Part shown: positions 5,126 through 53,118 of the stretch, piece after piece
Layout of the letters: every line of letters begins with the position of its first letter
How positions within the stretch are numbered: position 1 is the stretch's first letter
Assembly: GCA_965221425.1 (NCBI GenBank)
Contig: OZ244889.1
Location: 251,012-315,011 of the forward strand
DNA: 64,000 bases
Source of the DNA: Candidatus Poribacteria bacterium
Lineage (GTDB): Bacteria; Poribacteria; WGA-4E; WGA-3G
Reading direction: 5' to 3'
Notes under the pieces: model-generated
Database searches by the model: none
Told to the model about the DNA's origin: nothing
Seen by the model: only the letters and a program-made list of their open reading frames with translations
Program-made: the position numbers and the translations under genes

Positions 5126-5842
5126 ATGTCAAAAATTGCCGTGATTGCAGGTGTAGGCCCAGGTTTAGGCGCTGCGATTGCCCGAAAATTCGCGAATGAA
5201 GGATGCAACCTTGCTTTGTTGTCGCGTTCATCCGCATACAGTATCAATTTATCAAACAAATTGGAAGCAACAGGCGTATCAGTTATCCCCATTCCAACAG
5301 ATATAACGGATGCTAAGCAAGTTGCCGCGAGTTTTAGTCAGATTCGTGACGAATTAGGGGATCCAGATATCTTGGTAAACCACGCAGGAAATGCGGCATG
5401 GGGTAACCTGGCAGAATTGACACCTGATGCATTCGAAAACGCATGGCGCGTTTGCACACTTGGTGCTTTTCTGTGTGTTAAACAGGCAGTGCCAGGAATG
5501 ATTAAAAAGGGTAGCGGGACAATTCTCTTTTCCGGTGCGACATCCGCAGTGCGTGGCAGAGCAGGCGCAATCGCATTTAGCAGTGCGAAATTTGCAATGC
5601 GTGGTTTAGCATCTTCACTTGCCCGTGAAGTTGGACCAAACGGTATCCACGTAGCGCACGTTATTATTGATGGTGTGATTGACACACCGGGTATTAGAGA
5701 CCGGTATCAGTTGGAAGAAGATGAACCGTTGCTTGCACCTGACTCTATTGCCGATACTTATTGGGCACTTGTGCAACAAGAACGTAGTGCGTGGAGTTTT
5801 GAGGTGGATGTGCGACCTCATAATGAGGAATTTTTTACATAA
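5126..5842 (+). CDS. Short-chain dehydrogenase/reductase
   Basis: IAGVGPGLG, SGATSAVRG, FSSAKFA, HVAHVIIDG. Confidence 0.9.
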   Translation: MSKIAVIAGVGPGLGAAIARKFANEGCNLALLSRSSAYSINLSNKLEATGVSVIPIPTDITDAKQVAASFSQIRDELGDPDILVNHAGNAAWGNLAELTPDAFENAWRVCTLGAFLCVKQAVPGMIKKGSGTILFSGATSAVRGRAGAIAFSSAKFAMRGLASSLAREVGPNGIHVAHVIIDGVIDTPGIRDRYQLEEDEPLLAPDSIADTYWALVQQERSAWSFEVDVRPHNEEFFT

Positions 5843-5858
5843 GTAAGAGTGTATACTA

Positions 5859-6405
5859 TAACCTAAGTTGCCACCTATTTGCGAATGCTCTTGTAGGAGG
5901 GATTTCTAACCCCGATTTATAACAGAAAACGTAAGAATCAGCGGAAATGTCTTGTTTTTTTTTAGTAAAATCCGTAATTATTTGCACACCATGGTAGGTT
6001 CGGTTTCTAACCGCTCCATAGGCGTCAATTTAGCGGACCTTCACCCTGGTAGATGCGGTTTCCAACCGCATCGGGCTTATATGAGTTGCGGACAACAAGC
6101 GGTAAAGTTCTTTAGGGGAGCACTTTGTAAGCGCTATATATCGGCGTTGAAAACCCGCTGAATACCATACGTGTATTCAGCGTTAATTCACTCTCCCAAG
6201 AGCATATTGGGATAATACGGAGCGGTTGGAAACCGCTCCTACCGTGTAGTAGATACTCACAAATGCAGATTCATTTCTTAAATTGACGCCTATGGTTCGG
6301 TTTCTAACCGAACCTACCGGGCATGTGTAAACATATTTTTGGATTTCACTATAATAAAAAGCAGTGTCTGCTATCTCGAAATCTTGTAAGTAGCAACTTG
6401 AGTTA
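5859..6405. mobile_element. Three-level nested element: family B (5859-6405) > family A-type (5963-6351) > family C (6017-6294), with REP hairpins
   Basis: TAACCTAAGTTGCCAC/GTAGCAACTTGAGTTA; TAGTAAAATCC/GGATTTCACTA; perfect CCATAGGCGTCAATTTA/TAAATTGACGCCTATGG inverted repeats. Confidence 0.8.
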
Positions 6406-6431
6406 TTATAGTTTATAAAAAGGAGATTAAC

Positions 6432-7535
6432 ATGCTGAGAACGATTATAACTTTTTTCATTTTACTTATCGGTATCATGCTCTCTTTTTCGGACACGATG
6501 GCTGAAACGAATTGGACTGTCTTACGAGAAGACGATTTCATCCGTAATGATGGGGTTCAAGGGATGTTGCATGATGTGCATTTTTGGGATAATCAAAACG
6601 GTTTAGTGGTTGGAGATAGAGGTTTGATACTTGTGACAGAAGATGGTGGGAAAACTTGGAGCAAAAAAGAGATCAATATGCGTCCTCCTGGGGCACCTAC
6701 AGGACAGACACCTGGGCGACCCGCTGGTGCTGGGGGTGGTCCTCCGCCAGGCTTCAGAGGCGGTGGTTCTCCTACGCTCTATAATATCTATTTTGTCAAT
6801 GAAAAGGTAGGTTACATTACGGGGGCAAGAGGGACTATTTTAAAAACTGTTGATAGTGGAAAAACATGGAACCGAAAAATAGCAAGAAGCGCGGCTGCAG
6901 GGCAAAGTAATAACCCGCGTAGAGGTGGAATACGTGCAAACTTAATGGGAATTCAGATAATCAGTGAAACGGTCGGTTTCATCGTGGGTTCAGAGAACAC
7001 TATCCTCAAAACTACCGATGGCGGTGAAACATGGGTGGGCAGCTCAGAACGTGCACGTGTAGGGGAGACGCGGAATAACTTGGAAAATATCTGGTTTGTT
7101 TCACCAACTACAGGTTGGATTATTGGGTCTTATGGAACGCTCCTGCATACCACCGATGGCGGTGAAACATGGGAAAAGCAGAATGCTGGTTTCGATAACA
7201 ACTTGTTCGGTATCCATTTTTTCGATGAAAAGACTGGATGGATTTGTGGGCAAGAGGGATTAATTCTTCACACAAGCGATGGCGGCAAAACATGGAAGCA
7301 GCAGAAAACTGATTCTTATGATAATCTCCATGATATTATGTTTGTGGATAATATGATAGGTTGGACAGTTGGAGATTATAATGCTGTTTTACATACCGTA
7401 GATGGCGGTAAAAAGTGGAGTGCTTCAAAAGCTGGCGGGAGCGGCGGAACTCTCAAAGGTGTCCATGCTACAGATAAAGATCACTGCTGGACAGTTGATG
7501 ACTGGGGTGTGATTTCAACATATAAAACGAAATAG
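6432..7535 (+). CDS. Secreted YCF48-like / BNR-repeat beta-propeller protein
   Basis: Signal peptide; repeated G..G.IL.T.DGGKTW motifs. Confidence 0.85.
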   Translation: MLRTIITFFILLIGIMLSFSDTMAETNWTVLREDDFIRNDGVQGMLHDVHFWDNQNGLVVGDRGLILVTEDGGKTWSKKEINMRPPGAPTGQTPGRPAGAGGGPPPGFRGGGSPTLYNIYFVNEKVGYITGARGTILKTVDSGKTWNRKIARSAAAGQSNNPRRGGIRANLMGIQIISETVGFIVGSENTILKTTDGGETWVGSSERARVGETRNNLENIWFVSPTTGWIIGSYGTLLHTTDGGETWEKQNAGFDNNLFGIHFFDEKTGWICGQEGLILHTSDGGKTWKQQKTDSYDNLHDIMFVDNMIGWTVGDYNAVLHTVDGGKKWSASKAGGSGGTLKGVHATDKDHCWTVDDWGVISTYKTK

Positions 7536-12333: not shown

Positions 12334-12570
12334 TACCATTTCTGATAATCTCTCTCTCTTTGTAGCACAAACTGTATGAAGATTAAAAAATAAATTGGGT
12401 AATTTTGCGAGGTTAGGAAACCTCGCCAGCAGAGATGTACACTTGCTGCTGGCAAGGTTTCCTAACCTTGCCAATTACCGAAATATTTATTTAAACTTCA
12501 TTTAGTTTGTGTCTTCCAACACCGCAATTCATGAAATTCAGTGATGAGAAATTATTTTTTAGAAATGGTA
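12334..12570. mobile_element. Family F element (TACCATTTCT TIR, TTA flanks) containing family D element (12376-12501)
   Basis: TACCATTTCT/AGAAATGGTA with TTA on both sides; ATGAAGATTAA...TTAAACTTCAT inserted in loop of GCACAAAC-TGTTA-GTTTGTG hairpin. Confidence 0.75.
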
Positions 12571-16577: not shown

Positions 16578-16729
16578 CTGGATCGAAAGTTTGAACACTT
16601 TAAATATGATGCAACCTATCAATATTCAATAGATAACAACTTGAGTTGTATAAAAAATCATTTTATGCAACCTTTTTATCTTCGGTACGCGTTATTAACT
16701 TACAAAGACATTTTATTCTGAGGAGACAC

Positions 16730-19700
16730 ATGATGACAAATGATTTTGTACTAATCCAGCGCACCTTAGATGGTGACCAAAAAGCGTTTACCGAACTCGT
16801 AAACAAATACCAGAAATGGGTACACTCCCTTGTATGGCGAAAGATTGGTGATTTTCACATTGCAGAAGAGATTACACAGGATATCTTCCTAAAAGCTTAT
16901 AAAAAGTTATCTACCCTGAAACCTCCGCAACATTTTCCAGGGTGGTTATATGTCATCGCCTCGCGACACTGTATTGCCTGGCACCGAAAAAAGCAGCAAT
17001 CAACTAAATCTCTGGACGCTATGCCGACTGCGGAACTTGAGGAATTGTGCTATACGCGTTATGAGGTAGAACAGGGAAAAACAGTCTCAATTGAGCGCCA
17101 GCGTGAAATTGTCAAACGTCTTCTTCAGAAACTCCCAGAGAGCGAGCGTACCGTCGTAACGCTGCACTATTTAGCAGAGATGTCTTGCGAAGAAATTAGT
17201 CAATTCTTGGGCGTTTCGCAGAACACCGTTAAAAGTCGGCTCCACCGCGCCCGCAAGCGATTAGAGAAACAAGAACACCTACTCCATGATGCCTCAGGTG
17301 CCTTTCAATTGCCACCAACCCTTACCGACAACATCATGCGTGAAATTGCACGCATTAAATCGACGCCTACTACCGTAAACAAGCCTTGGATGCCGTGGGG
17401 ACTCTCATTCGCATCGGCATTTTTGGTTATCTTAATGATGGGGATGGGGCCTCGTGCGCTATCGCGTTTCCAAAAACCCTACAGTTTAGGTGTGGCACCG
17501 GAGATGAAAATAGAATTGGTTGACACACCTATTGTCCTTGAATTGGAACGCAAATCCGACGCGCTGACCCAAATTGGGAGATTGGATAGAATTGGTAGAA
17601 ACGGTGAAACTGAATTCCAAGCGGAATCACTGCTTTTCGCAGCTGCGCAAGCAGAAGATACCGACCTTCCAGCAGCAAAACCCGAATGGATTCAGACAAA
17701 GGGACCGGCAGGTGTTGGTGGTTCAGGCGCAAAACTTTTTCTTACGTCCGACCAAACTCTCTACGCGATTACAAAAACAGAGCTTTATAAACTCACAGAG
17801 AAAGCAGACATGTGGACACTTGTCAGTTCCAGTGATCCGAATCAGGTATTTGATGGAGTGATGGCGGAACGCGATGACACCCTTTACCTCCTTACTTCCA
17901 ATGAAATCTTAGCCTCAATTGATGACGGTAAGACATGGGATAACCTTGGCAGACGCCCCGAAGGCACTGCCGTTGCATTGGTTCCCACGGATACGGCGAT
18001 GTACCTCGTTCTCAAAACAGATGTCTTTCGTCTTCGTTTTGAGAATGTGGGTCATGCGTGGGAACTTATAGGAGATTCCTTGCGTGCCTTACAAGGCGAC
18101 GACGTCCCGGAGGCTGTCAATCCCAAAACCCGTCCTAATCGTGATGCTGCAGACAATCCCAATTTTCGTCCCAGAACCGGCCCTTTGGATGTACTCGCCA
18201 TGAGCAACATGGCTTTCCGCATTTGGGACGCACTTGCCATTGACAACACACTGTTTATTGGAACAAGCAAGGGGCTTTTCCGATTTACCGATGACTGGGA
18301 AAAACTACCGGTGCCCACAACACAAGGGATCAAATCGTTGGCAGCCGCAGAAGATAGGCTTTATGCAGGCACAATCATTGGACATCGGATCCCTATGGCC
18401 GGGCAGGTACCTATGGAGATAGGACCCCCTCGCGGGGGCGTATTCTCTTCCACTGACCTTGGCGATACCTGGACCGATATTACGCCAAAGACCCGCAGAC
18501 ATTCAATAGGCACTGTTGAAGTTGTTACAGTCGGAGACACGCTGATATTGTCTGGTCTCGGTTTACGCTCTCAAGACGGTGGTGAAACATGGATGGCTCC
18601 TGAAGAGGAAAGAAGGGCATTTAGCGTCTCACCTACTGTCGCTTTAGATAAAAGCAAATTATACCGCACCGACGTCATTGGAATAAGTCGTTCAACTGAT
18701 GGCGGTGATTCGTGGCATCCATTTATGACCGGAATAGTCAATTCCCACGTTCGAAAGCTGATTAAAATCAAAGATGTTCTCCTCGCGCAAACACCTACAG
18801 AAATGCTTAAATCCACAGATGGCGGAGAGTCATGGGAATCTGTTGACTTAATTAGTACTAACAAAAAAACACCACTTTTTCTTCAAAAAACGCGAATGAA
18901 AGTAGCAGCAGCCAATGGCGTACTTTATGCAACCAATAGTCAACCTGATGGTATCACACTCTTACGCCTCTCTGATGACGGTGATGTGTTCCTACCCGTT
19001 GAAGGTGTTCCAGATTTTGCAATAGACACCTTACAAACGGAATTGGAAAAAAAGTTAAAGATCGAATCTGATAAAGCAAAAGAACAGTTTAAGAAGGAAT
19101 GGGAGAAAAAGCGTGAGGAGCTAATAAAAGACAATCCTAACGTTGACATTGACAAAGAGATGAAACAGTTTAGGGCTGAACAGATGAAAATGCGTAAGAC
19201 AGCATCGGGGGGAAATATTATGACGGTAGGGAACAATCCTGATCTTGAGAAAGCAATGGAGCAGCGGTTTGCTATTGCTACACAAAACAAAATCGCTGAA
19301 GAACAGAGGAAGAATGGTACGTTTACAGTTGCTGACGATACCGTCTTCATGGTATACAGGCATAAACTGTTCAGATGGAGGTACGGCGAAACGGCGTGGC
19401 ACGACACAGGTTTGGATTTAGAAGATCAAGAAGGCTTCACGCTTGCTGCTTCTGGGAACACCTTCTATGTCGGTAAACAGGAGGGAGAGCTTTTCTTATC
19501 ACAAGATGGTGGAGACACTTGGCGTGATGTCACTGCAAACCTGCCATTTCATGGATTTATTAAGGAAATACTGTTCGCGGGTTCCACTGTCTATATTTCA
19601 ACAGATATAGGTATCATGAGTTCACGCGATGGCGAAAAATGGCAAACATGGCACGACCTCACCGATGTTGATGGGAATGTAATTTTCATTGACCGAATTG

Positions 19701-25127: not shown

Positions 25128-25734
25128 TAGTGACATTTAGAATTGAAAGGAACATTTTGTAGCACAACCTGTATGAAGTTTAAGTTATTAATTCGGTAAT
25201 TTGGCGAGGTTAGGAAGAAATCAACGGTATGAATGCCATTTAGGCATTCCCCGCCTCGCCAGCAGAGATGTACACCTGCTGCTGGCGAGGTTTCCTAACC
25301 TCGCTAAATTCCCCAATTTATTTATTAATCTTCATTTAGGTTGTGCAGAAACGGAACACCTTATGTGTCAATTTAAGGGATAAACCCGCTGTAGTAGTGT
25401 CTTTAGTCCCGTGAATCAACGCCAAATACGCGTTTGGTATTTGTCGGGGACGATATGTGTATCCCAACGACATATTTTCTACATATCGTCCCTACGGGAC
25501 TAAAGAACTGGGGTATCGTTTTTTATAAACATATCGTCCGTACGGGACTAAAGAGGACTAATCTCTATAATCATGCGTATTTAGAGGTGTTCACAATAAC
25601 ACAGATTTTTTCTTAAATTGACACCTATGGGTTGTGCAGAAACGGAACACAACCTAACAGGTTATGCTACAGTGTCTACGGTAGTTTCGGTTTTCTGACT
25701 GATCCTAATGTCCAATTAATTCTAAAGTTTACTA
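25128..25734. mobile_element. Composite nest: family A host containing D (25173-25335, with 36-bp E at 25217-25252) and C (25360-25629, with E-like insert 25413-25445)
   Basis: Matching terminal inverted repeats; 21-bp direct repeat GGTTGTGCAGAAACGGAACAC flanks C. Confidence 0.8.
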
Positions 25735-38912: not shown

Positions 38913-39372
38913 TAACCAAAGTTGCTACTTCTGTAGCACAATCTGTATGAAGTTTAAGTAAATATTTCGGTAATTGGCGAGGTTAGGAAGAAATCAAGAA
39001 ATCAACGGTATGAATCATGGCGAATGCCATACGCGCATTCGTCTTTAGTCATTCCCCGGGTATGAATCATGGCGAATACGCCAAATCAACGGTATGAATG
39101 CGCTTGGCAGCATGCGCGTGTGGCATGCTGCATGATTCCCCGTGTGGTATTCGCCATGATTCCCCGCCTTGCCAGCAGCAGGTGTATATCTCTGCTGGCG
39201 AGGTTTCCTAACCTCGCTAAATTACCCAATTTATTTTTTAATCTTCATTTAGATTGTGCATATTAGTCCGCAAACTAACAGTTTGCGCTACAAATATTGG
39301 CTAATTATCAGCATATTTTCATTTAAGACGGTGTTCCCGTGTCTAAAAACTTATAAGTAGCAACTTGGGTTA
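38913..39372. mobile_element. Family B element > REP hairpin > family D (38947-39248) > multiply nested E units (38990-39165)
   Basis: TTAACCAAAGTTGCTACTT/AAGTAGCAACTTGGGTTAA, with TAATTTA repeated at both junctions. Confidence 0.8.
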
Positions 39373-44388: not shown

Positions 44389-44469
44389 CGTAAATACTAT
44401 ATTGATGACCAATCCGAAATATCAGATGCAGATTTTGACACACTGACGCACTAACTTGAGAAACTTGAA
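44389..44469 (+). repeat. Degenerate duplicate of ligA 5' coding segment (45546-45626)
   Basis: CGTAAATACTATATTGATGACCAATCCGAAATATCAGATGCAGATTTTGAC matches ligA with one mismatch over about 51 bp, then diverges with an in-frame stop. Confidence 0.9.
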
Positions 44470-45009: not shown

Positions 45010-45041
45010 ATGTAATCTGTCCGTAAAATGAGACGTTTATA

Positions 45042-45470
45042 TAGTAAACCCATAATGCTTATATATTGTGGTAGGTGCGGTTTCCTAACCGCCCCGTGTC
45101 TGGATAAATGGTGCGGTTAGAAACCGCACCATAGGTGTCAATTTAAGGGGTAAATCTATTTGGCAGTGTCTTCAGTCCCGTAGGGACGATATGTTTATAG
45201 ATATGAAATGTATATATATCTTTAGTCCCGTAGGGACGATATGTGTATCCCAACGACATATTTTTTACATATCGTCCCTACGGGACTAAAGAGGCGTTGT
45301 TCAATGTTTTTCTATAAACATATCGTCCCTACGGGACTAAGATGTGGACAGTTCCAATCGTCATGCCTATTCAGAAGGGCTTTTAGAACAAGAAATATTT
45401 TCTTAAATTGACGCCTATGGTGCGGTTAGAAATCGCACCTACCAGGGTGTCCATATATTTTAGATTACGA
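45042..45470. mobile_element. A-type host with family C element (45130-45419) carrying GTCCCGTAGGGAC hairpin pairs
   Basis: CATAGGTGTCAATTTAAG/CTTAAATTGACGCCTATG flanked by 19-bp direct repeat GTGCGGTTAGAAA(C/T)CGCAC. Confidence 0.8.
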
Positions 45471-45473
45471 TAA

Positions 45474-47811
<2,338 letters not shown>

Positions 47812-47833
<22 letters not shown>

Positions 47834-48245
47834 GACACTTCTGTAGCGCAATCTGTTAGATTACGTTCTCACAGGCACAATCTAAATGAAGTTTAAATAA
47901 ATATTTCGGTAATTTGCGAGGTTAGGAAGAAATCAACGGTATGAATGCGCGTATGGCATTCCCCGCCTTGCCAGCAGCAGGTGTGTATCTCTGCTGGCGA
48001 GGTTTCCTAACCTCGCAAATTACATATCGTCCCTACCAAATCAACGCTATGAATGCGCCAAATCAACGGTGTGAATGCCATTGGGCGAATACGCCAAATC
48101 AACGGTATGAATGCGCGTATGGCATTCCCCGTATGGTATTCGCCATGATTCCCCGTATGGCATTCAGCGGGACTAAAGAGCATTTCTCATATTTGAAAAT
48201 CACTAAATGACACATAAGGTTCAGTTAGGAAATCGAACCTACCAC
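47812..48245. mobile_element. Composite: A left end, D left part (from 47886) with E (47929-47964), C-type hairpin with triple-nested E (48037-48168)
   Basis: Direct sequence comparison with other copies in the window. Confidence 0.75.
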
Positions 48246-48251
48246 TGGTAA

Positions 48252-49121
48252 TCAACAAGGAAGATGGAGAAAAGTTATTACCTGTTTCGTGCTCGGAATT
48301 CGCCGTGAATGTTCAAAAATCTTGCCGTTTGCACTTTCCGACTTACCTTCATTCATTCGCGATTCTTTTGGTTTGCACCAGTAATTTAGCGGCACTTCAC
48401 CTATTAACTCACCAACGCTTACCCTGTTATTAAACTGAGACGCGAATGCCTTCGGATGAAGCGGTTGCCCACTCACCAGATAACAGTTCCTGTTCTCGCG
48501 GAACCCATCAGAATAGGCGAAGTAACGAATAACACCCTCCTCCGAAAACACAATCGCGCAAACAAATTTGGACAACCTTGTGTAATGAATCCCCGTGCTT
48601 GTTAAAGACGTGCCGTACTGTGAAGCAAGCGCAGCAATCGCTGGCAACCCCACTTGTGCATGTGAAGATGAATCCGCCGAAAAGATAGGCGTAGGCATTA
48701 GCAATTCAGCAGCAAATTGATTCGCTCGCTGTTCACTTTGTAGATATGCCTGTTTATTAGGCTTTCCCTGTTCGGCATCCTCAGGCTGCTCTGTCATCAC
48801 AGCATTTAAGCGTTCATCCAGTGAACAAGAACCGACGGAATCGCGCTCTAACAGGTAATGCCCGATTTCATGCGCGATGGTAAAATTCCGCCGAGACTCT
48901 GATCGAATCTGCGCGTTGATAAGAATACCCCACGCATCTCCGACTCGCATCAGACAACCGTCACAAGTATTGGGCAGTTCACGTTCCCAGATTACGATAC
49001 CGAGTTGTGTCGCGATGTGCCTTGGGTCTATCGGAAAATCTTGGACTTTAAGATCGCGAAGGATACCCCACGCTGCTGCAGCAGGGCTGCCCTTCGCATA
49101 TTGCAACCGGTTATTCAGCAT
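48252..49121 (-). CDS. ImmA/IrrE family metallo-endopeptidase (CapP-like)
   Basis: RRNFTIAHEIGH, EQRANQFAAELLMP, YGTSLTS. Confidence 0.9.
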   Translation of the reverse strand: MLNNRLQYAKGSPAAAAWGILRDLKVQDFPIDPRHIATQLGIVIWERELPNTCDGCLMRVGDAWGILINAQIRSESRRNFTIAHEIGHYLLERDSVGSCSLDERLNAVMTEQPEDAEQGKPNKQAYLQSEQRANQFAAELLMPTPIFSADSSSHAQVGLPAIAALASQYGTSLTSTGIHYTRLSKFVCAIVFSEEGVIRYFAYSDGFRENRNCYLVSGQPLHPKAFASQFNNRVSVGELIGEVPLNYWCKPKESRMNEGKSESANGKIFEHSRRIPSTKQVITFLHLPC

Positions 49122-49476
49122 CAACGAAACTTTCACTTGATGTTGCTTGCTCTTGTGCCTTGAGAAATTTATACATCTCAACGAGCGTTTCTTTATTTTT
49201 TTCTGTAAGCGTCATCATTCCCCTCAGCATTACACTTACCGCTGGATCCGCCAATAAGTCTTCAAAACCCAGATCCTTTTTACCAAGCAGGTAATCTGTT
49301 GACACCTTCAGGGCATCAGACAGACTGGAAAGCGTTTTAAAAGAGGGTTTTCGGCTACCCGACTCAAATTGAGAAATAGCCGCAGGCGTTAGATTCGCTT
49401 CTTTTGCTAATTCAGTTTGTGTCATTTTAAGTTCACGTCGACGTTGTTTTATCCGGGAGGTAACTTTTTCACTCAT
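49111..49476 (-). CDS. XRE-family helix-turn-helix regulator
   Basis: RIKQRRRELKMTQTELA...AISQFESGSRKPS...STDYLLG. Confidence 0.93.
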   Translation of the reverse strand: MSEKVTSRIKQRRRELKMTQTELAKEANLTPAAISQFESGSRKPSFKTLSSLSDALKVSTDYLLGKKDLGFEDLLADPAVSVMLRGMMTLTEKNKETLVEMYKFLKAQEQATSSESFVDAE

Positions 49477-51197: not shown

Positions 51198-52922
51198 ATG
51201 AACAAACTCTACTTCGGCGACAACCTACAAATCCTACGCGAAATGGATGACGAACGCGTCCACCTAATCTGCACCGACCCACCTTTCAACAGCGGACGCG
51301 ACTACAACGCCTTTATCGGTGATTCCCTTGCACAAAAGAAAGCATTTACTGACACGTGGACATGGGACACCGCCGCACAAGACGCACGTGCCGACATTGA
51401 ATCGCGTGCCATTTCCAGCGACACATACAAAGCATTGGATACCTGCCTTAAGGGATACGACATGGTGCTGCAGAACACTGTATCTGGCAGTCAAGGTGGG
51501 ATGCGTGCATACCTTGCTTTTATGGGGCCCCGCCTTGTCGAAATGCACCGTATACTCACGAAAAAAGGTAGTGTCTATCTGCACTGCGATCCGACAGCAA
51601 GCCATTACCTAAAAGGCGTTATGGATGCGATCTTTGGCGTAGATAATTTCAGGAATGAGGTTATCTGGCAACGCACTAATGCACATAACGATGGCAAGCA
51701 ATACGGCAGGGTTCACGACACAATATTATTCTATAGCAAAAGTAGCAAAGTCGTATGGAATCCTGTCTATACAGAACACGATCCTGAGTACGTAAAGCAG
51801 CAGTATCGGCATGAAGATGAAAGAGGTCTTTACCGAATCGTCACCTTGAATGCACCAGGGATTACACAAGAAGGGGACTCTGGCAAGCCGTGGCGCGGTG
51901 TCAACCCAAGTGACGTAGGCAGGCACTGGAGTGCCCCACGCAGAGAGGCGTGGCCAGAAGGGGTTGTACCTCCTGAAAATTATGAATCTCTCTCGGTTCA
52001 CGAAAAATTAGAAGTATTAGATGCAAATGGATTAATTTATTGGCCGCCGAGAGGTAAGGTCCCAGGGTTCAAGCGGTACTTATCTACATCAAAAGGAGCC
52101 AGAGTCCACGATGTTATCACAGATATAAATCCACTTGCGAGCGCTGCTAAGGAACGCCTCGGTTATCCCACACAAAAACCACTTGCCCTCTATGAACGCA
52201 TGATAAAAGCCTCCAGCAACGAAGGCGAAATCGTGATGGATCCGTTCTGTGGATGTGGCACAACGATTGACGCCGCACACACTCTCAACCGATATTGGAT
52301 CGGTATTGACATAACAATCCTCGCATTGGACCCGATGCGCGAACGGTTGGCAGACCGACACGGATTAGAGCCTTCTGTTGACTATCAAATTGAAGGGTAT
52401 CCCACAAACATGCAGGAAGTCCGAAAGTTGTTAAAAGAAGGGGACAAACGCAAATATCACGATTTCTCGAATTGGGCAGTAACACGGCTTGGATTGAAAC
52501 CGACAAAAGACGCGGGCGATGGTGGTCTTGATGGTGTCGGGCATCTAACGTTATGGGACCCGCAACAGATGAAAGAGTCAGATTCACGTATTCTCGCCGA
52601 AGTCAAAGCTGGCAAACCTACGATAACGCAAGTACGTGCGTTCTGTCATGTCATGGATCAACACAAAGCAGAAGTCGGCATTTTTATCACTATTGAACCT
52701 GTCACTGCGAAAATGCGGCAAGAGGCACAGAATATGGGCACTTTTGAGCATAACAACAAAACCTACCCCCGCCTTCAGTTCTGGCAAATAGACGATGCGT
52801 ATTTTGAGAACCCGGATATAATCAACACTCTTGTCCGATTACCAGATGCATGGCGTATCCGTCCAACCCAAAAGTCAGAACGCCACTTTGACACCCAGCA
52901 GCTGCAATTACTACGTGGATAA
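51198..52922 (+). CDS. Beta-class N6/N4 DNA methyltransferase fused to C-terminal Mrr-like PD-(D/E)xK nuclease domain
   Basis: DPPF, YPTQKP, DPFCGCGTT; C-terminal DGGLDG...EVKAG. Confidence 0.88.
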   Translation: MNKLYFGDNLQILREMDDERVHLICTDPPFNSGRDYNAFIGDSLAQKKAFTDTWTWDTAAQDARADIESRAISSDTYKALDTCLKGYDMVLQNTVSGSQGGMRAYLAFMGPRLVEMHRILTKKGSVYLHCDPTASHYLKGVMDAIFGVDNFRNEVIWQRTNAHNDGKQYGRVHDTILFYSKSSKVVWNPVYTEHDPEYVKQQYRHEDERGLYRIVTLNAPGITQEGDSGKPWRGVNPSDVGRHWSAPRREAWPEGVVPPENYESLSVHEKLEVLDANGLIYWPPRGKVPGFKRYLSTSKGARVHDVITDINPLASAAKERLGYPTQKPLALYERMIKASSNEGEIVMDPFCGCGTTIDAAHTLNRYWIGIDITILALDPMRERLADRHGLEPSVDYQIEGYPTNMQEVRKLLKEGDKRKYHDFSNWAVTRLGLKPTKDAGDGGLDGVGHLTLWDPQQMKESDSRILAEVKAGKPTITQVRAFCHVMDQHKAEVGIFITIEPVTAKMRQEAQNMGTFEHNNKTYPRLQFWQIDDAYFENPDIINTLVRLPDAWRIRPTQKSERHFDTQQLQLLRG

Positions 52923-52956: not shown

Positions 52957-53118
52957 ATGAAGATTAAGAAAATATTTTGGTAATTGGCAAGGTTAGGAAA
53001 CCTTGCCAGCAGCAGGTGTACATCTCTGCTGGTGAGGCGGGGAATGCCATACGCGCATTCATACCGTTGATTTCTTCCTAACCTCGCCAAATTACCCAAT
53101 TAATAACTTAAACTTCAT
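52957..53118. mobile_element. Family D element with reverse-oriented 36-bp E unit (53039-53074)
   Basis: ATGAAGATTAA/TTAAACTTCAT TIR. Confidence 0.75.

Follow-up and report, generated by a model that had tools for sequence, protein, structure and literature searches.

A nested stack between two genes

The window analysed here, a stretch of 64,000 nucleotides (G000:C1:251012-315011), comes from a closed Candidatus Poribacteria genome (G000; 5.24 Mb, 43% G+C). The relatives of its ligA gene, at 81-98% identity, all carry titles naming Candidatus Poribacteria, which are sponge symbionts. Near the start of the window, a 589-bp spacer (5843-6431) lies between a short-chain dehydrogenase gene (5126-5842) and a Ycf48-like BNR gene (6432-7535), and contains a 547-base block (5859-6405) in which a sequence-only reading had distinguished three concentric inverted-repeat pairs. 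The pairs are present, and the outermost, B, occupies exactly the proposed coordinates, but the block comprises at least four concentric layers rather than three. From the outside in, the motif map of the block runs B, A, REP, T, REP, and then continues as the mirror image. Three inverted-repeat diagonals were found in the block, scoring 25, 16 and 16, compared with 12 for the best of 200 dinucleotide shuffles. The layers and their parts are the following:

5856-5858 (no strand): left copy of the 3-bp target duplication of B, CTA in G000 and TTA in the relatives G013 and G014, from the alignment of empty, B-only and filled sites
5859-6405: B, a MITE with ends TAACC..GGTTA, a non-autonomous TIR element
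5859-5962 (+): left arm of B, starting TAACCTAAGTTGC, delimited by 25 uninterrupted paralogs and the uninterrupted G014 ortholog
5893-5914: B's own GTAG hairpin, inside its left arm
5963-6351 (+): A, probably a MITE of IS630 type, TAGTAAAATCC...GGATTTCACTA (TAGT..ACTA), present in neither the 25 paralogous B copies nor the B of G014
About 5963-5992 and 6319-6351: TIRs of A, aligned to an IS630 element of the congener G042
5994-6017 (+): GTAG-tagged REP hairpin of A, of which 5997-6017 is copy 1 of the 21-bp duplication of T
5997-6017 and 6294-6314 (+): target duplication of T, a 21-bp hairpin, 19/21 identical as counted by eye
6018-6293 (+): T, a probable IS4-family MITE, ATAGGCGTCAATTTA...TAAATTGACGCCTAT, with putative parents bearing the same ends in congeners
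6048-6072 (+): left inner REP of the inverted pair of T, GGTAGATGCGGTTTCCAACCGCATC, from the inverted-repeat search and common to sibling T copies
6073-6215 (no strand): core of T, of which 6073-6156 is low copy (3-9 genomic matches), from the coverage profile and the T alignment
6157-6181: hairpin in the core of T
6173-6215: part of the core common to sibling T copies
6219-6243 (-): right inner REP of the inverted pair of T, ending CTCCTACC, from the inverted-repeat search
6294-6317 (+): copy 2 of the T duplication (6294-6314) and then the CTAC end of the REP of A
6352-6405 (+): right arm of B, ending GCAACTTGAGTTA, from paralogs and orthologs
6406-6408 (no strand): right copy of the 3-bp target duplication of B, TTA, from the ortholog alignment

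The arms GGTAGGTTCGG..CATAGGCGTCAATTTA mimic one long inverted repeat, yet their hairpin loops are co-oriented, because T is flanked by direct copies of the 21-bp hairpin of A. When the 589-bp spacer was compared with G000 by BLAST, 405 matches were returned, with copy number changing in steps from the outer to the inner parts (about 35-45, 60-110, 20-35 and, in the core, 3-9). As had been claimed, no transposase is encoded in the window: six-frame searches of the whole genome for the Y1, DDE_3, DDE_Tnp_1, TnpB, IS110 and rve families gave no matches inside it. A tRNA search of the window was likewise negative.

Orthologs, paralogs and the two outer layers

A search for orthologs of the spacer in 31 genomes recovered three states of the same site, namely, empty (G013), filled with B only (G014) and filled with B, A and T (G000), the flanks of G013 and G014 being 97% identical to those of the window. 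In G013, window position 5860 is joined straight to 6404, and in G014, position 5964 is joined to 6355. The aligned site reads GTGTATA-TTA-TAGTTTA in G013, TTA-[B]-TTA in G014 and CTA-[B with insert]-TTA in G000; from this three-state alignment it follows that B makes a 3-bp duplication. In four other relatives with 84-88% identity (G002, G006, G008 and G012), the alignment spans the spacer, leaving 1-26 bases unaligned between the matching flanks. The series from empty through B to B+A+T thus bears out the view that each layer is a distinct non-autonomous element, added through insertion. The block is a genuine stack of small non-coding mobile elements, each inserted in another.

Presence/absence polymorphism across relatives, which the sequence-only reading had called for, is common elsewhere in the window as well. 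L001 has 17 bp in place of the 431-bp stack at 45041-45471, and at the position of 47812-48248 only about 10-17 bp are found in L002, L003, L006 and L009; in relatives, the orthologous spacers flanking ligA have either a different filling or none. Long ligA matches in L001 and L025 were considered as insertions within the gene, a reading that found no support: L001 is colinear across ligA, with an 81-bp repeat upstream. In the window itself, an 81-bp segment (44389-44469) located some 1.1 kb upstream of ligA shares 84-89% identity with the 5' part of the ligA genes of relatives (corresponding to window 45546-45626) and has the appearance of a relic, a small duplication of the gene start.

That the block serves as a regulatory or structural element under selection, such as a terminator, an insulator or a structured RNA, instead of being selfish DNA, is very unlikely. 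It does have a strong predicted fold as single-stranded DNA (z = -8.7, equalled by 0 of 100 shuffles) and contains four promoter-like and two terminator-like matches (2.1 and 0.7, respectively, in shuffles), but these consensus matches are weak, no Rfam family reached the gathering score in the window, and relatives whose flanks are 97% identical either lack the block or have a different one.

Paralogs within the genome tell the same story for B. Besides the window copy, there are 25 uninterrupted copies of 158-162 bp (TAACCyAAGTTGC..GCAACTTAGGTTA), and window 5961-6354 is missing from all 25 (support 15 + 10); the window copy is the sole interrupted B. Genome-wide, 52 of the 94 B pairs defined by TIRs have identical 3-bp flanks, A/T-rich yet varied in sequence, compared with 2/94 in a control with the flanks shifted by 5 nt. 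Elements of the F family, for which ends with TTA flanks had been proposed, behave similarly: identical 3-bp flanks (TTA/TAA) accompany 34 of 56 pairs and only 1/56 in the shifted control. B, A, F and T all have TIRs, a target duplication (TA in the case of A), many copies and no transposase ORF, that is, the features of MITEs. For B and F, no long pairs of ends were found among the 164 loci examined, and in five congener genomes no pair of B ends encloses a gene; one of these, G033, contains at least 40 full MITE copies in addition to scattered half-ends. Accordingly, the suggestion that the TIRs could be matched to the ends of autonomous IS holds for A and T, in both cases in congeners, whereas no such match was found for B in these searches.

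The A layer has TA on its right side (6352-6353) and TT on its left; since the left flank is TT and the B of G014 reads TTTTTTTGTAAAAAGC at this position, a clean TA target of the window copy is not reconstructable. For A-type termini in general, spanning six TIR subfamilies, TA directly adjoins 249 of the 266 left ends and 263 of the 281 right ones. Six other termini-defined copies of the A subfamily to which the window copy belongs read TTA/TAGT..ACTA/TAA (slashes mark the ends of the element). Pairing of the A2 termini yielded just 6 pairs out of 68 termini. Short copies of 88 and 123 bp consist of a TIR, one or more GTAG hairpins and a second TIR.

Long pairs of A1-type ends were absent among the 164 loci examined, and the putative parents of A were found later via a search for DDE_3, which gave matches in 34 of 40 genomes of the genus. 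Several IS630-family elements of about 0.9 kb in congeners end TATAGTrAA..yTTACTATA. One of them, a 906-bp element of G042 (L175 1048-1953), encodes HTH_Tnp_IS630 and DDE_3 domains and scores 109 bits against NF033545 (cut-off 100); its two unlike ends match the two unlike ends of A at 21/27 and 23/27 bases, as counted on alignment A2. The TA flanks, together with ends common to an IS630-transposase element of a congener, mark A as very probably an IS630-type element, and the proposal of an IS630-like system is therefore upheld. In G000 itself, no clearly intact IS630 parent was found; there is one frameshifted copy and one decayed copy, with TAGTAAAG ends.

Bacterial MITEs of the IS630/Tc1-mariner type reportedly include RUP of Streptococcus pneumoniae, with IS630-Spn1. 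Like these, layer A is bounded by TIRs with TA outside them, lacks an ORF, is represented by dozens to hundreds of termini, and has ends in common with an element that encodes HTH_Tnp_IS630 and DDE_3. Unlike them, A would derive from compact parents of about 0.9 kb, its interior is a GTAG REP hairpin or doublet, and its matching parent is found in another species of the genus, G000 having decayed copies only.

The T layer, its IS4-family parents and the RAYT gene

Among 82 adjacent pairs of T ends in the genome, 50 are flanked by 21- or 22-bp direct repeats under a strict rule, and 65 T copies have matching 21/22-bp flanks when at least 18/21 or at least 19/22 identities are required. The duplicated sequences vary from copy to copy and include unique DNA, indicating that they come from the target; they fit the pattern GG-N17/18-CC. 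The junctions CC/ATAGG are nearly invariant, with C at 65/66 and 57/66 positions. Two T loci have orthologous empty sites: T3 (G000 1412524-1412733) is missing in G013 and G014, each of which has a single copy of the duplicated 21-mer, and T1 is missing in G008 and G002, where the empty site again contains one copy of the 21-mer.

These sites also bear on the idea that the 'empty' paralogs arose by deletion from long palindromes and that the layers reflect palindrome decay. Long palindromes are unstable, and the 777 nested events described below cannot by themselves separate insertion from an amplified deletion variant. However, the orthologous empty sites have exactly one copy of the duplicated sequence, TTA for B and the 21-mers for T at two loci, and the flanks of paired ends are identical far more often than in shifted controls. 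Decay is already contradicted for B and T, and we consider this explanation hardly credible.

A search for PF01609 across the genus gave matches in 36 of 40 genomes. At 10 of the 23 loci scanned, a gene of about 450 aa lies between T-type ends spaced 1.44-1.49 kb apart, and the flanks of five of these ten match at 19/20, 21/21, 20/22, 21/22 and 22/22 positions; by eye, the elements at L142 and L158 have perfect 19-bp repeats. The single ORF at L149 (463 aa) scores 211 bits against NF033592 (IS4 family transposase; cut-off 115) and 89 bits against PF01609 (DDE_Tnp_1). Judging from these shared ends and duplications, T appears to belong to a clade of the IS4 family whose parents are 1.45-kb elements of congeners, none being present in G000: neither an intact IS4-type parent nor a pair of T-type ends 0.76-8 kb apart with a matching duplication was found in that genome. 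A 6.2-kb pair of T ends in G000 proved false, the two ends belonging to separate elements. The sequence-only reading had postulated an IS5-like system; the third enzyme system that can be identified is instead IS4, which would move the T layer, a layer that reading did not separate. Its picture of a self-contained ecosystem likewise did not hold, given that no intact IS4-type parent was found in G000 and that its IS630 copies have suffered frameshifts or decay; the parents reside mostly outside the genome.

Transposase-less cassettes, such as MIC231, are known for the IS231/ISH8-like subgroups of the IS4 family, and the short T derivatives carrying passenger DNA, including the RAYT gene described below, resemble them. 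The putative parent of T also conforms to the family in matching the NCBIfam IS4 equivalog and Pfam DDE_Tnp_1. A 2008 review of the IS4 family gives duplications of 'about 10 bp' and describes 5'-CAT ends for two subgroups (PMC2266710). The ends of T, C-ATAGG, are similar to the latter, whereas its duplication, 19-22 bp or two helical turns in MITEs and parents alike, departs from the 10 bp stated there, as does its target, GG-N17/18-CC, which is often a REP hairpin.

The third system proposed in the sequence-only reading, HUH/RAYT-like, adjoins the window. G000 contains one gene matching PF01797 (Y1), at 315342-315818, which starts 331 bp past the last base of the window. It encodes a 158-aa protein with an HVH motif and, by reading, an RYT tyrosine (NF047646, 123 bits; cut-off 80). 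Inverted GGTAGGTTCGGTTTGTAACCGAACC hairpins, contained in a 44-nt inverted repeat, flank the gene. GTAG-tagged hairpins are present in high copy number, with 270 matches to GGTAGGnnCGGTT on both strands (for example, 5994-6017 and 6048-6072), and the combination with a single-copy Y1 transposase between inverted cognate REPs is that of a REP-RAYT system. By analogy with the literature, the enzyme acting on the REP hairpins is presumably this single RAYT. Two TnpB-type ORFs, both full-length, lie outside the window (G000:C1:3717118-3717309, 433 aa, and 3444671-3444874, 382 aa), with no Y1 partner gene in the genome.

The RAYT unit (G000:C1:315176-315950, which would be window 64165-64939) is located between T-type ends, the right one degenerate, within an A-type MITE. 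In G002, a RAYT with 94% identity resides inside an intact 693-bp T at a non-orthologous locus, and the sole part common to the two loci is the REP-to-REP segment. The flanks of the G002 locus map to G000 at about 5.082 Mb, where there is no RAYT and the spacer is not a clean empty site, other repeats being present. These two are the only ones among the 19 RAYT loci examined in the genus that lie between T-type ends (both intact in G002, the right one degenerate in G000); the remaining loci have ordinary cognate hairpins alongside, including the type that forms the core of the abundant P elements of G000. At L098 of G033, a RAYT paralog is flanked by this core hairpin of P, and G000 lacks that RAYT.

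We considered whether RAYT itself could move T, which would make T a new kind of TIR-bearing Y1 transposon cutting after CC on both strands of the hairpin. All coding T copies seen in G000 and G002 contain RAYT, the commonest T subfamily (212 bp, 22 copies at no less than 80% length) has the ends and hairpin pair of the RAYT-bearing element minus the gene, and the near-invariance of the CC/ATAGG junctions would fit such cutting. Yet congeners contain many 1.45-kb elements with the same ends and 19-22-bp duplications that encode an IS4-family DDE transposase, only 2 of 19 RAYT loci lie between T-type ends, and IS200/IS605-type enzymes are described as making neither TIRs nor larger duplications (PMC2817692). 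Once IS4-type parents with the same ends and duplications had been found, RAYT was dropped as the transposase of T, and we regard this role as highly improbable.

The T-type ends in G000 and G002, the restriction of the similarity between the two loci to the REP-to-REP segment and the gene-less 212-bp T elements lead us to read RAYT in another way, to which we would give even odds: RAYT and its hairpin pair may be cargo of an IS4-type cassette, moved by the DDE transposase, with REP doublets seeded across the genome as 212-bp T elements with 21-bp duplications. Because T both carries and targets GG-N17-CC hairpins, such a system would feed itself and build stacks. No paper describing a RAYT inside a TIR element was found in the limited literature collection searched.

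REP, BIME and REPIN systems with RAYTs have been described previously (Nunvar 2010, PMC2817692; Bertels & Rainey 2011, PMC3116915; Ton-Hoang 2012, PMC3333891), and with these G000 shares the GTAG-tagged high-copy hairpins, the single RAYT with inverted cognate hairpins and the inverted doublets. It differs in that many of its hairpins reside inside TIR-MITEs, one doublet family apparently spreads as cargo of an IS4-type MITE, and RAYT lies inside that MITE. REP hairpins are also known targets of insertion sequences (Tobes & Pareja 2006, PMC1525189), and T is comparable in being a transposable element that prefers REP hairpins. Here, in contrast, the whole hairpin is duplicated and the elements that hit it are mostly non-autonomous; the insertion sequences mentioned in the abstract of that study come from other genera.

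Build-up of the spacer and of intergenic DNA

The reading we favour, with a probability of roughly 85%, is that the spacer was inflated by one insertion after another of non-coding elements, which rely on transposases encoded at other places. By this account, it grew from an initial length of at most about 30 bp to the present 589 bp. The ortholog series shows the first step, in which B inserted into TTA and duplicated 3 bp. A, with a simple form of about 92 bp comprising two TIRs around one GTAG hairpin, then went into the T/A-rich middle of B; this insertion is directly visible in the comparisons, and an IS630-type enzyme probably carried it out. Finally, the IS4-family T, if this copy behaved like the rest of its family, would have been inserted by cuts on both sides of the GG-N17-CC hairpin of A, the repair of which would leave the whole 21-bp hairpin on each side of T, and would have brought along its own inverted pair of GTAG hairpins. 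The entry of T into A may have preceded or followed the arrival of A at the spacer.

The former order corresponds to a possibility that we rate below even odds, namely, that only two events took place at this site, the insertion of B and then that of a ready-made A+T composite via the ends of A, with the inner nesting having occurred elsewhere. A second locus in G000 (949958-950402) matches window 5962-6171 (90.5%) and 6173-6309 (92.8%), that is, the left end of A with the same T subfamily, and no B+A without T was found among the relatives searched. Against a common composite, the duplicated hairpin at the second locus is GGTGAGGTTTCCTAACCTCACC, that of the window being GGTTCGGTTTCTAACCG..CC, and in another A copy (3654978-3655309) the same hairpin has been hit by a T belonging to a different subfamily, from which it follows that T hits the hairpin of A repeatedly.

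Repeats occupy 20 intervals of the window (5,664 bp, 8.9%) and, when defined by 12-mers occurring at least 10 times, 2,387 regions of the genome (374 kb, 7.1%). Intergenic DNA contains 81.5% of the repeat bases, and 37% of intergenic DNA is repeat, both figures being rough since they derive from a crude ORF gene map and a 12-mer-count mask. Gaps with repeats (1,234 of 3,406) have a median length of 385 bp, compared with 59 bp for gaps without repeats. Spacers would collect elements because insertions in genes are lost. One repeat-like stretch within a gene, 16717-17347 inside a 1081-aa ECF-sigma/BNR fusion ORF, has 14-27 genomic look-alikes and is probably a paralogous coding family rather than a mobile element.

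The sequence-only reading had the same families recurring at other named loci of the window in other orders. The families do recur, but in one order according to the motif map: a shell of A, B or F, a GTAG hairpin, P or T, and finally H or F5. Within the window, a shell inside a shell occurs only once, as B containing A. Genome-wide, 2,762 candidate nested events were recorded as pairs of hits adjacent in one copy and split in another, 777 of them with at least five 'empty' paralogs; these counts are not of independent insertions, amplified composites being indistinguishable from them. The list is at the same time a lower bound, given that the insertion of A in B is itself missing from it, the locus having been broken up into two repeat regions by its low-copy core. 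Most numerous are H modules in the hairpin loop of P (313) and P in the loop of the GTAGCACAA hairpin (104 + 19).

H modules are at least 37 nt long (AAATCAACGGTATGAAT..ATTCCCCG; window 25217-25253, 38990-39166, 47929-47965 and 53038-53074) and sit in the P hairpin loop GGCGAGGTTAGGAA^CCTCGCC and in each other; their left-end motif occurs 404 times in the genome, and no enzyme was identified for them. P elements are palindromic, about 130-160 bp in length (ATGAAG..CTTCAT; window 12376-12505, 25173-25335, 38947-39248 and 47886-48020), and are found in the loop of a GTAGCACAAnCTGT/TAGnTTGTGC hairpin, with 196 copies at 80% length or more. F5 units (..AGTCCCGTAGGGACGATATG..CATATCGTCCCTACGGGACT..; window 25400-25560 and 45175-45345) form arrays nested inside T elements, with 61 copies of at least 80% length. 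Between repeat-filled spacers lie genes for an IrrE-like M78 peptidase (48252-49181) and a DNA methylase with a fused Mrr-like nuclease domain (51198-52922), which may constitute a small defence or mobile island.

Since repeats already account for 37% of intergenic DNA, a good deal of nesting would arise even in the absence of targeting. Of the 65 T duplications, 33 are hairpin-like, compared with 640 of the 3,272 intergenic GG-N17/18-CC sites (binomial p = 2e-8) and 1,010 of all 22,401 such sites; the preference of T for hairpins, about 2.6-fold over the intergenic background, is real. There is no sign of preference for B by A, with one interrupted copy against 25. Thus, the idea that these systems target each other's passengers applies to the hairpin-seekers, T as well as P and H in their hairpin loops, and not to A in B. 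A second cause of stacks would accordingly lie in target choice, T here and P and H elsewhere in the window selecting hairpins supplied by earlier elements.

The stack is ordinary in kind; what is unusual is the apparent two-turn IS4 clade, whose T duplicates 21 bases of its target, and the RAYT as apparent cargo. No paper on MITEs or REPs in Poribacteria was found in the limited literature collection searched. The spacer provides a clean natural time series, empty, with one layer and with several, of intergenic build-up by non-autonomous elements, which, by a rough measure, make up more than one third of the non-coding DNA of this symbiont. An IS4-family clade with a preference for hairpins and with target cuts spaced by two helical turns is relevant to the way in which DDE transposases measure targets. 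REP hairpins and a RAYT gene travelling as passengers of DDE elements complicate the reading of REPIN populations as the outcome of RAYT activity alone and, if this carriage is true, a RAYT present in a single copy and supposed to be sedentary owes its movement to a DDE transposase. Finally, such stacks break short-read assemblies and shift the spacing of genes, possibly also their expression, which matters for metagenome-assembled genomes of sponge symbionts.
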